Positions 25,101-31,100 of a stretch of 64,000 nt of DNA are shown piece by piece. The position numbers are program-made. Numbering within the stretch: the stretch's first letter is position 1; each line of letters begins with the position of its first letter. Where the stretch lies: the NCBI RefSeq assembly GCF_045037415.1, contig NZ_CP173438.1; one strand, given 5' to 3'. The DNA comes from Escherichia coli (GTDB lineage Bacteria; Pseudomonadota; Gammaproteobacteria; Enterobacterales; Enterobacteriaceae).

Positions 25101-28100
25101 ATGGGAACCATACAGAAGATAAGAACAGATGTTAATGTATTATATGCGGCCATTCACCGTATTGAGTGGTTGTTTGAGACATTTTCATCTGTTTGTTTGT
25201 CTTTTTCTGGAGGAAAAGACTCTACTGTGCTGCTCCATCTTACGGCCGATGTGGCTCGCAGGAAGAAACGTCGTTTCTCTGTATTATTCATTGACTGGGA
25301 AGCTCAGTACCAGTGCACAATTGCACACATTCTGAAGATGAGGGAGATGTATCGGGATGTGACGGAGACTTTTTACTGGGTGGCACTCCCCCTGACTACG
25401 GTAAACGGTGTCTCTCAGTTTCAGCCGGAATGGATATGCTGGGAACCAGGTGTGGAGTGGGTTCGTCAGCCACCAGATGACGCTATTACAGATATGTCGT
25501 ATTTCCCATTTTATCGGTATGCCATGACGTTTGAAGAATTTGTTCCGGCATTTTCTTCCTGGTTTGCCGGTAACCGGTGTGGAGTGGCAATACTGACTGG
25601 TGTTCGTGCTGATGAATCGCTCAATCGCTTTATGGGACTGGTGTCTCAGCGCAAACTGAGATATGCAGATGATAAACCCTGGACCACAGCGTCACCTGAA
25701 GGGTTTTATTACACCTTGTATCCGTTGTATGACTGGAAAGCCCGTGATATATGGATATATAACGCCAGAACCCGAGCTATCTACAATCCCCTGTATGACC
25801 TGATGTACCGTGCCGGCGTGCCGTTACGCAACATGCGGGTCTGTGAGCCTTTTGGCCCGGAACAGCGTAAGGGACTGTGGCTTTACCATGTTCTGGAGCC
25901 GGAAACTTGGGCCAGGATGTGTGAGCGGGTGTCGGGTGCTGCCAGCGGGGCGCTTTATGCCAATGAGAGCGGTGCCTATTTTGCCCTGCGTAAGCGTATC
26001 ACGAAGCCACCTCATCATACCTGGCGTAGCTATGCGATGTTCCTGCTGGATGTGATGCCGGAAAGAACGGCAGAACATTACCGTAATAAAATTGCTGTCT
26101 ACCTGCGCTGGTATCAGACGCGGGGCTTCCCGGATGACATCCCGGATGAACAGGAGAATGACCTGGGGAGCCGGGATATCCCGTCTTGGCGACGTATCTG
26201 TAAGACACTCATAAAGAATGATTTCTGGTGCCGGACCCTCTCCTTCAGTCCGAACAAACCCCGGCACTATGAACGTTATCTGCAGCGTATGAAAGAAAGG
26301 AGGAAGGAATGGGGGATTCTGTGACACCTGAGGTGGAAGTATTGAGCAACATGATTCGACAGTACTTCAGTCAGGAACGATCTGAAGAAGAGACCATACG
26401 AGCCCTTAATCATCTGCGCAGGGTGTTGCATGAGGTCAGCCCTTTTGCACAGGAGCCTGTGGACTGTGTGTTGTGGGTGAAAGCGGATGAGGTGGTGGCC
26501 AACGATTACAATCCCAATGTCATGTCTTCCAGTGAAAAAAAACTGCTTAAACATTCACTGGAGCAGGATGGATTCACGCAGCCTGTGGTGGTTTCGGAAG
26601 AGAAGGAGCATTATCTGGTCGTGGATGGTTTTCATCGTCAGTTGCTGGGCAGGAAAGCGGATACGAGAAAACGTCTGAAGGGTTGGCTGCCAGTGACCTG
26701 TATTAATCCGGAAAGAAAGGGACAGGCATCACGTATTGCCGCAACCATACGGCATAACCGTGCCAGGGGAAAACACCAGATAACGTCAATGTCTGACATT
26801 GTCAGGGACCTTTCGCGTCTGGGCTGGACAGATGAGCGTATTGGCACAGAGTTGGGCATGGACCAGGATGAAGTGCTGAGGCTGAAACAGATTAGCGGGC
26901 TGACAGAGCTGTTTCAGGAAGAGAATTTCAGCCCTTCATGGACGGTTCGTTGATATTGTAAAATATGATAGTTGGAGTAAGGGGCAATAGAAGGAGAATA
27001 TTTATCCCACCTTCTTCCGAGTCGGGATAAATCAAAAGGTATTATCCATTGATTCAGTATCTGGGTGAGAGTAAATAATCTAAAAATAGTATTGCGTTGT
27101 GAACTGATATCACTTTTGAATTACAAAGGTATAGGCTCAGTAACCAGCTTTATAAGTCATTGTCGTAGCAATGACTATAGAGTCATGCTGGCGGGAAGAA
27201 TAAATATTCACCCCCAGATGGAAAACAACGTCGAAAAACCTTCAACAAACACAATACGTTCGTTAGCCTGCCCGCAAAGCGGGCAGATCAGGACAAAGAA
27301 TTCCATAACGATTGTTTTTGTCATCAGAAATTCCATACAAAACCTATAGCTGCATTAAAACCTGCTGCAGGAATAGTTTCATGTGCTGTACGGTAGCGTT
27401 TGTCTGTCAGGTTATTGAGTGCTAGGTTAATCCGGTACTGATCCTCGTTACCGAATTCTGTATTTACTGCAAAGTTGAGAGTGGCCCAGCCCGGAACATT
27501 TGTTTCGGTACCGTTACTGTCATCTTTTGCACTAGAGGCAGCACGAATAAAAACATCAGAGATTATGTTGGCCTGACCCATCACAAGAGTATGTTTCAGC
27601 CCTATACGTCCGTTTATCGCTGGTTCTCCTGTATTAGTTGTTTTTAATGTTGAAGTTTCATATTGCCGACGAATTAAATTGCCACTGATATATGGCGAGA
27701 AAACCCAGCCATTATATTCCGCGCTTATTTCCAGTCCCCATGTTTTTGCCCGATCAATATTGTCATAATAATAGTAGCTACTACGGGAGGAGTTGGTGTT
27801 ACCATTGCAAACTATACTGCCATCACAGATCAGACTTGCAATATAATCTTTAGCTTCTGAGTAGTAAACTGCGCTGTCAATCAGCCACTGATTACCATTA
27901 TATCGTGCACCTAATTCAAAGTTATTGGAGTGTTCAGCCTTAAGATCAGGATTTCCGTATGTGACACTGCCGCCCGCAGATGTCTGCATAAAAAGCTGGG
28001 AGAGTGTGGGAAATACGTAGCCTTGCGCGAACGCAGCGCGTAACTCCAAGTTATCGAAACCTGAATAGCGCAGGCTTGTAGATGTTACCATTTCGTGATC

Positions 28101-31100
28101 ACTCGCAGACTCTCTGGCAAGAGAGGTATCGCTTATAATGCCTGCGGTATATGATACTCCGTCACCACGCGTCAACTTTGAAGAAAGCCAGTATTGGCGA
28201 ACTCCCATTGTCCATGTCCAGTGATCGGCGAATCGCCAGTCATTTTGTGCGAATAGTGAGACTGTACTTTGCTCTGACTCATAATAGGAGCGAGTTCGTG
28301 TTTCCTTATTAATGAAGCCGGTCAGAGATTTGCTTGAGGTCATGCCACCGGACCTTTGGCTGACCCTGTCTTGTTTGTACTGTGCACCGGTAACAAGTTC
28401 ATTATTAGCAGGCAGCGAAAAGTGACTCTGCAATGTGACCGCCTGAGTGTATTGCTTATCATGGGTGTCAGTCTTGTTATGAACGGTCAGAGCCTGAATC
28501 ATCGGACTGGGAACAGGCTGTGTCGTTTTTACTTCGTTGGCAAATTGGCGCTGGATGGTCTGCTCATACGCGTCGAAATGAATTTTTTTTAGATAGTCAC
28601 CGTCCACGTCTGTGTCATAGAATACCCCAACTTTCTCTCGTTCAAGTTTAGGTATTTTGACACTAAATGCCTCATAGCTTCCGTCTGGATCCTCATAGTA
28701 AGTTTGCGTCGCGAGTCTGTAGCGATCAAGCGAGAGGCCAAAACGATGGTTTCCGGAGTTATAACCCAACCATACACCCTGACTATTGTTACGATAGTTG
28801 GTATTCGGCAGACGTCCATCCGGCGTATCACGATTGCCCTGATCAGAATAACTACCGTTGATGCGATAATCAAATCCACCGATGCTCCCCTGGACCGCGA
28901 TTGATTCTTCCCAGCCTGCTGTTGCGGAATTATAAACAGCTTTCACAACTCCAGATGCAAGTTTGTCACCTCCCTTTTTGGTTATGAAGTTAACAATACC
29001 GCCAATTGCCTGTGAACCGTACAGTACGGAATATGGACCTTTCACTACCTCAACACGCTCCAGCGCAGACTCATCTATCAACAGTCCCACACCATAATTA
29101 TCTCCGGCGCGCTGATAAGTTACCTCCTGACCATCAATGAGAATTAAAACACGGGAGGATGCTTCGCCACGAATGCGGATTTGTTTACGGCCTGCCAAGG
29201 AGTTGTCTGTTATCTCTACTCCGGGGATGTCCTGCAAATTATCGGCTATGGAGGCATTGGTGGAGTTCTGCAATGTTTGTTGGTCAATAACCTGTATAGT
29301 CGCCGGGCTTTCCCAAAGGTTGCTTGCCGAACGATTCGTGGTCACGACGAGCGTCTCTTCGTTGCTGATTTTTGTTTCTGAAGAAGTTGCGGTTGCAGTA
29401 GAAACTATCCCAGAAATGCATAATGACAGAGTGGAAAGGATATAAATTCGACAAGGTATATTATATAACATTTCATCCCTCATTAATACAAAGTACAAAT
29501 GATTGCTGTAATGATAATTATTATCATTTATGTTCTCATGTATCTGTGATTATTGTCATCTTCATAAATTGTAAATATCAAACATTTTTGACCTTAATCA
29601 TGTTTTTTGATAGATATTTTACGACTGAACATATCCGTCGTTTCCTCTGACTCGTGTCAGTCGGTCTCTGGTTGTATCCACGGACCGTACTCTTGACATA
29701 AGAGTGCGGTCCGTGGAAAACGGAGTTGAAAAAATGGTGTCTGAAAGAAGGTACCATCATTGCGATGACAAACACTTTGGCGTGGATAATGTAATTAATT
29801 GCTGAAATTGACCGTATATGCGGTAAGACTCATATCAGTATCAGGTCCGGTTAATTGCTGATACTGACATAAACTTTTTACAAAAGGATGAATGCAGAAG
29901 GTTACTCTAATGGCCAGAGTGATGACAATGATGGTCAGACGTTGACCTGCAGAAACTGCATTTTAATTGGTCTATAAAGTCTGCAAGAGGAATCAGGGTC
30001 AGATCAGTGAGTCTTATCGCGGCCCGAAGCTATGACTGAAAGAAGGCTGGATACAGAATTGCAACAATTTGGCAATGTCAGAACACAGAAGCTTTGCAAG
30101 CAGGTGAAAGGTTATGTCTAGAAAAAGGAGTATATCAGAATACATCTACTGATGTACAAAACACAACAATAGCTTCATGATATATAAATACGTGATGACG
30201 AGTTGTACTCCGCATGGTTATTTAACTTCTCAGCACCACTAATGATCCTGAGCAACTTCGTATTTGGGCCATTGCCATGGAGTAGAAAGCTGTGTCTGAG
30301 AATGCAGAATTTGAGAAAAGAATTCGCTTTCTTGGAGAGCTTCTGAAAATGGCACGCTAACAACGCTTTGTTAAAAAATGTGAATCACTTGCCGAGGCTG
30401 CATTTTCTATTCGAGGAGAATGTTGACGTAGATATTACAGAAATCTCAGCGCATCAGGATAAACTGCTACCTTAGGTCAACCACCAAAAGAAAATACAAT
30501 ACGTCCAGTTTGTATGCCTTTAATAACACATCTTTTAAATGTTGAAGAATTATCCCGCCTGCTGAAGAACGTTGCTCTGAGTGTGATAAACCTTTTTATT
30601 CTTGATGATGTCAGCGAGAAGATGGAATATATCCCCGACTGGGTCGTGGTTACCCGGTTAAACATCTGGTGGCGCTAATAAATCTGGCAAGTCACATTCT
30701 GTTGAATGCTGTGACAGTGCCTTACCGAGAGAGCGAAATTGTGGTGTTCTAGTGCATAGTCGCCACCATTCCGGATAATTTTATTGCGTTGTTTTACAAC
30801 TTCTTTTACAGCGCAGATCTGTCGCTGACGTTGAATCAATAGCCTGGATTTCAGAACACAATGCCCGTTTGCTGGTTGGTCCGGCAGTAGCATTAATTCA
30901 TTATCTGAATGAAATGTGTCAATCCACAGAAACCGCTGTCAATGACGCATTTTGTCGGACGTTAACACGAGAAAGTCTGGCTATTCCGTAATGCCATCTT
31001 ATTTCGTAATGGATTGAGAATGCTGGATTTTTAATTATATTACGCGCAGTATTAATCGCGTAAATGTTTTGCGGTCAGCAACGGTGGGGGATCCATTGCT

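Follow-up and report, generated by a model that had tools for sequence, protein, structure and literature searches.

The hma locus beside cobU

The stretch of DNA analysed here (the window) comprises 64,000 nucleotides (nt) of an Escherichia coli genome (GCF_045037415.1, contig NZ_CP173438.1), and the element in question is a minus-strand gene for a TonB-dependent outer-membrane receptor, together with the sequence preceding its start. The gene is flanked by an ibrB-like gene on one side and, on the other, by a fragment of an IS4-family insertion sequence (IS), a remnant of a cobalamin biosynthesis (cbi) gene and cobU; the same neighbours are found in uropathogenic strain CFT073. The open reading frame spans 27324-29498 and encodes 724 amino acids (aa) when counted from a TTG codon. 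An ATG at 29471 is the start given by RefSeq in a genome that is 100% identical to the window over 17000-37000; from this start the product has 715 aa (WP_000966628.1) and a predicted precursor mass of 79.2 kDa. A first-pass annotation of the window had considered the receptor intact, and the translation agrees: it contains no internal stop, and both the Plug (PF07715) and the beta-barrel (PF00593) domains of TonB-dependent transporters score above their gathering thresholds. A TonB box, a signal-peptide-like hydrophobic N-terminus ending in ATA and a C-terminal Phe are all present in the translation as well. The description of the gene as lying next to cobU is loosely right, the two genes being divergent and cobU starting ~1.67 kb away.

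The receptor gene is hma (c2482), already characterised in uropathogenic E. coli, where it encodes the second heme receptor. In CFT073 the gene at 2322324-2324471, adjoining cobU, carries the same protein accession and shows 0 differences from the window gene over 2148 nt. The name is attached to this position by several papers: a table of Fur binding peaks labels the peak at 2322265 'hma, haem receptor, c2482' (Banerjee et al., PMC7157518), c2482 bounds GI-CFT073-cobU (c2528-c2482; PMC6315130) on its cobU-proximal side, and hma is equated with c2482 in two further papers (PMC2736566, PMC3203889). The colibactin island of CFT073 (the neighbouring asnW island, c2449-c2475) is located across cobUST-ldtA from hma. 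Hma was reportedly first described as a 79-kDa receptor, in agreement with the mass computed here. Combined, these results leave little room for doubt that the region is hma, a single-gene unit of extraintestinal pathogenic E. coli encoding a heme receptor, plus its own Fur operator.

A pair of primers published for amplification of hma by the polymerase chain reaction (PMC6202021) does not fit this gene. The forward primer ATGGTTAAAGATACAATC matches nowhere in the window, even with 3 mismatches allowed, and the reverse primer CCACTGATAACGGGTAT would encode ...TRYQW at the C-terminus, where Hma ends in ...FVWNF. This mismatch was judged to be a fault of that table and was not counted against the identity of the gene, because the identity rests on genome coordinates.

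In all genomes examined, RefSeq labels the gene 'TonB-dependent receptor plug domain-containing protein', and in the sequence-cluster collection the exact protein bears generic names only, with no 'Hma' label. The first-pass annotation was accurate and its interpretation is supported in every element; what it missed is that the receptor is a named and well-studied one, Hma (c2482). The main finding is therefore already known and matters as annotation only, in that the generic RefSeq label hides a heme receptor.

A Fur operator precedes hma

The palindrome AATGATAATTATTATCATT lies exactly at 29510-29528. It had been placed, as a 19-bp palindrome, about 40 bp upstream of the receptor start, and this was correct since the gap to the hma ATG is 38 nt. 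The sequence is a perfect 9-1-9 inverted repeat whose reverse complement differs at the centre base alone, and, with up to 3 mismatches allowed, shuffled windows yield 0.01 matches by chance. Within it, 29512-29526 form a perfect 7-1-7 Fur core (TGATAAT-N-ATTATCA), and in a register shifted by 3 bases (29507-29525) 16 of 19 positions match the classical 19-bp Fur consensus GATAATGATAATCATTATC. The whole 64 kb was scored with a position weight matrix (PWM) derived from 12 further Fur sites published for CFT073. The hma box was the top match of the window, with two overlapping registers scoring 20.8 and 20.7 bits; the maxima of mononucleotide-shuffled sequences had a mean of 14.3 and a standard deviation of 2.0, the largest of them (21.8) exceeding the observed 20.8.

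This palindrome is the published Fur site of hma, mapped experimentally in CFT073. Chromatin immunoprecipitation sequencing (ChIP-seq) of Fur in that strain gave a summit at 2322265 with a height of 1383 and a motif, TGTAATGATAATTATTATC, at 2322270-2322288, reported by FIMO at positions 89-107 of NC_004431.1:2322182-2322387 (PMC7157518). We located TGTAATGATAATTATTATC at the predicted place in the CFT073 locus (L003 32270-32288), which corresponds to window 29507-29525, and no base differs between the window and CFT073 in the interval that begins 138 nt upstream of the box and ends with the start codon. RNA sequencing in CFT073 gave a ratio of hma RNA between fur mutant and wild type of 104, independently of RyhB (PMC7157518), and hma is counted in published work among the direct Fur regulon. 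The hma transcript is also increased 14.8-fold in human urine and 6.6-fold in infected mice (PMC2736566). The first-pass proposal that the gene is very likely iron-regulated thus finds its counterpart in the Fur peak and the 104-fold derepression recorded for the same sequence in CFT073.

The operator overlaps a promoter-like site on the hma strand (Table 1), and, as expected of directly repressed promoters of the Fur regulon, the box lies over a -10-like hexamer; the spacer also falls inside the operator. The hexamers remain putative because the consensus scan finds promoter-like sites in the region no more often than expected by chance. From the position of the spacer and the -10 hexamer within the operator, simple occlusion of the promoter by Fur is the likely mechanism. 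In iron-replete cells, Fe2+-Fur on the 25-bp operator (29507-29531), possibly as two dimers, would cover the spacer and the -10 hexamer and block transcription; upon iron starvation, in urine, kidney or blood, Fur would leave and hma would be strongly derepressed.

The second-best independent PWM locus of the window, GAAAATGATAACTATTTCT (50327-50345, 16.4 bits), lies 56 bp upstream of fyuA, the yersiniabactin receptor gene. This site is consistent with the Fur ChIP signal of fyuA in CFT073, which is weak (48.9; PMC7157518). The receptor next to cobU had been seen as a second Fur-controlled uptake system beside the yersiniabactin receptor; fyuA is indeed present in the window and, because the receptor gene is hma, the second system takes up heme. 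The presence of hma and of the yersiniabactin island in one window identifies the source strain as extraintestinal pathogenic E. coli, and the top matches include an O25b:H4-ST131 strain.

Hma is a divergent heme receptor

The best NCBIfam matches of the protein were the heme/hemoglobin receptor family, at 229 bits over the full length, and the hemoglobin/transferrin/lactoferrin family, at 209 bits. In a search of solved structures (PDB), the heme receptor PhuR gave the only full-length match (aa 43-694). TonB-dependent use of heme by Hma has been published, for a sequence identical to that of the window. An hma chuA double mutant is defective in heme uptake, attenuated and outcompeted in spleen and liver, and Hma contributes to fitness in kidney infection and bacteremia. 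Vaccination with Hma protects mouse kidneys (PMC2736566), and Hma is among three iron-receptor antigens that protect as vaccines.

The residues that would contact heme depart from those of other heme receptors. The FRAP and NPNL boxes are degenerate in Hma (YVFP...NPDL, aa ~483-510) in alignments to ShuA and PhuR. In ShuA, His86 and His420 serve as the conserved heme-receptor residues. HMMER alignment places Hma Tyr126 opposite His86, whereas His420 faces a gap in Hma; the combination of a conserved plug-apex His with a His between FRAP and NPNL is absent from Hma. According to a review, Hma depends on a Tyr exposed at the surface and not on the conserved His residues, which is consistent with the alignment of Tyr126. 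We conclude that Hma is a working but divergent heme receptor.

Genes for a heme ATP-binding cassette (ABC) transporter, a heme oxygenase or a hemophore are absent from the annotated neighbourhood of hma. As no heme ABC transporter is encoded nearby, Hma is an orphan receptor and has to pass its substrate to transport systems whose genes lie elsewhere; a review names DppABCDF alongside ChuA and Hma. Once in the outer membrane, Hma would bind heme at its extracellular face, with Tyr126 on the plug apex in place of the His pair usual for heme receptors; energy supplied by TonB-ExbBD through the TonB box ETLVVTT would then bring heme into the periplasm, from which ChuTUV and/or DppABCDF may carry it onward.

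The K-12 remnant, distribution of hma and operator alleles

According to the first-pass annotation, K-12 carries only a disrupted receptor remnant (yoeA) plus IS elements near cobU. Both were confirmed in a K-12 derivative, where two receptor pseudogene fragments, truncated and split by IS2, are followed by Ag43, yeeR and yeeS (CP4-44), and where IS5 is present before cobU. The IS2 position, mapped through a 5-bp overlap of two matches, corresponds to window 29166-29170 (codon ~101). Homology to K-12 stops at window 28972, at ~codon 167, where the CP4-44 prophage region begins, and the IS5 in the spacer towards cobU corresponds to window 30749-30752.

Distribution was analysed with a 2.5-kb query consisting of hma plus flanks against 5426 complete E. 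coli genomes. Some match to the query was found in 2224 of them and at least 80% of the query in 1357, about a quarter of the total, O157:H7 strains included; a few of the latter copies are broken by an IS or a frameshift. One genome devoid of hma still has the Fur box, with sequence conserved as far as window 29501, where an IS-associated breakpoint lies. The hma-cobU locus is a hot spot for insertion and deletion.

Two disrupted copies were noted individually. In E. coli W2-5, a river-water isolate, the hma orthologue (L006 125-2271) is annotated as frameshifted, and in H17 (strain S1-SRL-01-C) hma is interrupted by an IS3-family element. The two lesions are further independent inactivations of hma.

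The palindrome is perfect, with TGATAAT, only in two B2-type sequences, those of the window and of CFT073. The allele TGAAAAT, which introduces one mismatch into the palindrome, is carried by the five other genomes examined (L005, L006, L007, L001, L008): an O157:H7 strain, K-12 and three further E. coli genomes. These sequences suggest that a perfect palindrome is a lineage-specific feature. The common TGAAAAT allele probably binds Fur too, because Fur regulation of the K-12 remnant is described in a preprint (10.1101/2020.05.21.109694).

Points of conflict and alternative readings

Several points weigh against the identification of the region as a Fur-controlled heme receptor gene. Firstly, the data on binding, expression and phenotype come from the CFT073 literature and not from the strain of the window. 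Secondly, the score of 228.9 against the heme-receptor model TIGR01785 is below the curated cut-off of 316.85, so that sequence models alone do not put Hma in this family; it is still the best family, with an end-to-end match over aa 39-711. Thirdly, the plug domain taken alone is most like that of CirA in the PDB search. Fourthly, we take Tyr-126 to be the specific heme-ligand residue, and heme affinity is likewise presumed, with backing from the review and the alignment. Finally, the preprint mentioned above, a survey of the Fur pan-regulon, reports hma as Fur-regulated in W3110 and not in CFT073, 042, Sakai or BL21.

It can be imagined that the B2 operator allele tunes the affinity for Fur, or that Hma has a second role, either a TonB-independent function or the uptake of another tetrapyrrole. 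Such a proposal is very unlikely, and neither of its parts is indicated by the evidence. A possible hint of a TonB-independent role is that an hma chuA mutant is less fit than a tonB mutant in the liver. If true, the operator difference would alter the tightness of hma shut-off and its induction in the host.

It could also be argued that the Fur box, real as it looks, does not control hma in this background, with Fur binding without regulation or another regulator being responsible. The preprint speaks for this, as it denies Fur regulation of hma in four strains despite the presence of the gene. However, the peak of 1383 sits at the site itself and loss of fur derepresses the gene 104-fold (PMC7157518), expression of hma rises in urine and in vivo (PMC2736566), and the promoter, with its -10-like hexamer inside the box, is identical in the window. 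The conflict between the two sources is not reconciled; we give more weight to PMC7157518 because it provides explicit coordinates together with ChIP and RNA values, and we regard a box that does not control hma as exceedingly improbable.

The original annotations of K-12 and CFT073 suggested 'iron or colicin receptor', and a receptor for catecholate siderophores or colicins, similar to CirA or FepA, would agree with the strongest E-values among solved structures (CirA, 2.7e-29; FepA, 1.1e-21) and with a match to the siderophore-receptor model TIGR01783 at 126 bits. This assignment is scarcely credible, because the best-scoring stretch of each match covers the plug domain only (aa 38-174 for CirA, 31-182 for FepA), the barrel adding weak stretches of ~18-22 bits. 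Moreover, the equivalog scores are far under their cut-offs (120 versus 745 for CirA, 92 versus 493 for FepA), the best full-length matches are heme receptors, and the published phenotype is TonB-dependent use of heme. Hma might additionally serve as a colicin or phage receptor.

A BtuB-like corrinoid receptor serving the adjacent cobUST cobinamide salvage, its position beside cobU being functional, can be practically discounted: cobU is close by, heme and corrinoids are both tetrapyrroles and the TonB-B12 and BtuB models do match at 117 and 84 bits, but the respective cut-offs are 599.7 (TIGR01779) and 836 (PRK10641, matched over aa 22-192 only), BtuB matches in the PDB search are limited to the N-terminal plug region (aa 37-185), hma is Fur-controlled with a published role in heme use, the two genes point away from each other with an IS4 fragment and a cbi pseudogene remnant between them, and many genomes keep cobUST without hma. 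A scan of 26900-31200 at E<=1 found no cobalamin riboswitch or other Rfam family, bar a spurious match to a small nucleolar RNA. Homology to BtuB-type receptors, which the first-pass annotation had named as an outcome that would overturn its proposal, was thus looked for with negative results. Hma as a heme receptor remains the reading that we retain.

Features of the locus and flanking genes

The features of the locus and of other parts of the window referred to in the text are listed in Table 1.

Table 1. Coordinates of hma, its regulatory elements and other features in the 64-kb window
Feature	Position	Strand	Basis or remark
hma coding sequence, TonB-dependent outer-membrane heme receptor	27324-29471	-	715 aa; identical to CFT073 c2482; open reading frame, translation, RefSeq
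Shine-Dalgarno GAGGG	29477-29481	-	5 nt 5' of ATG; read from sequence
Probable signal peptide, aa 1-28, ending ATA, then TSSETK	29388-29471	-	AXA rule; predicted cleavage
TonB box ETLVVTT, aa 39-45	29337-29357	-	HMMER alignments; opposite N-terminal ETMVVTA (CirA) and ETMTVTA (ShuA)
Plug domain, aa 54-159	28995-29312	-	Pfam PF07715, E=6.4e-24
22-strand-type TonB-dependent beta-barrel, aa 233-688	27408-28775	-	Pfam PF00593, E=1.3e-39
Tyr126 codon TAT, at plug-apex His86 position of ShuA	29094-29096	-	HMMER alignment to 3fhh
Fur operator, two overlapping 19-bp boxes (29507-29525, 29513-29531) around the palindrome	29507-29531	.	Palindrome, core, PWM, CFT073 ChIP motif
Promoter-like site: -35 ATGAGA (29539-29534), 17-nt spacer, -10 TATCAT (29516-29511)	29511-29539	-	Consensus scan; putative
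GC-rich hairpin between the convergent hma and ibrB-like genes	27267-27287	-	37 nt after hma stop; RNA fold
IS4-family transposase fragment	30651-30839		Internal stop
3' remnant of cobalamin biosynthesis (cbi) gene	30848-30991		
cobU	starts 31143		Divergent from hma
fyuA, yersiniabactin receptor	48250-50271	-	

The hairpin that follows hma has a 9-bp stem, CUGCCCGC/GCGGGCAG, in the centroid structure, with z=-2.1 for a 76-nt stretch. A U-tract was not found after this hairpin, which may act as a terminator.

A second, very stable hairpin of 41 nt was observed at 29677-29717, ~210 bp upstream of the hma start, and is also present in K-12. Its stem can be drawn as 17 bp, with one mismatch in the window and none in CFT073, or as 19 bp on the plus strand, with a free energy of -30 to -35 kcal/mol and z ~ -7.5. 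As there is no U-tract 3' of it on either strand, it is not a canonical terminator.

Convergent with hma, an overlapping pair of plus-strand genes occupies 25101-26953 and encodes an IbrA-like protein of 407 aa (PAPS-reductase/DUF3440) and an IbrB-like protein of 214 aa with a weak ParB_N match. Weak PADLOC matches were obtained for the IbrA-like protein only (BrxP, E=8e-6; DndC, E=5.5e-4).

Comparison with known systems

The closest system is Hma of CFT073 (c2482), with identical nucleotide and protein sequences, the same location between ibrAB-like genes and cobU, and the same Fur operator. While the gene is the same, the flanks differ at ~0.08% of positions, one of them in the hairpin ~210 bp upstream of the start.

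In common with ChuA/ShuA (PDB 3FHH) and the HemR/PhuR group, Hma is TonB-dependent and Fur-repressed, has heme as substrate, combines a plug with a barrel and possesses a FRAP/NPNL-like region. It differs from them by its low identity, by a score below the family cut-off, by Tyr126 in place of His86 and by the lack of a counterpart of His420; unlike chu, hma is not accompanied by chu-type genes for transport and utilisation. Like Hma, FyuA is a TonB-dependent receptor that belongs to the Fur regulon, and its gene is preceded by a Fur-like site. In contrast to Hma, it has a siderophore as substrate and belongs to the operon structure of the High Pathogenicity Island, and both its Fur box and its ChIP signal (48.9 versus 1383) are much weaker.

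Finally, yoeA of K-12 lies at the same locus as hma, with the promoter region kept and codons 1 to ~167 at 99% identity. It differs from the window gene by the one-mismatch Fur box, the disruption by IS2, the truncation at CP4-44 and the IS5 in the spacer.

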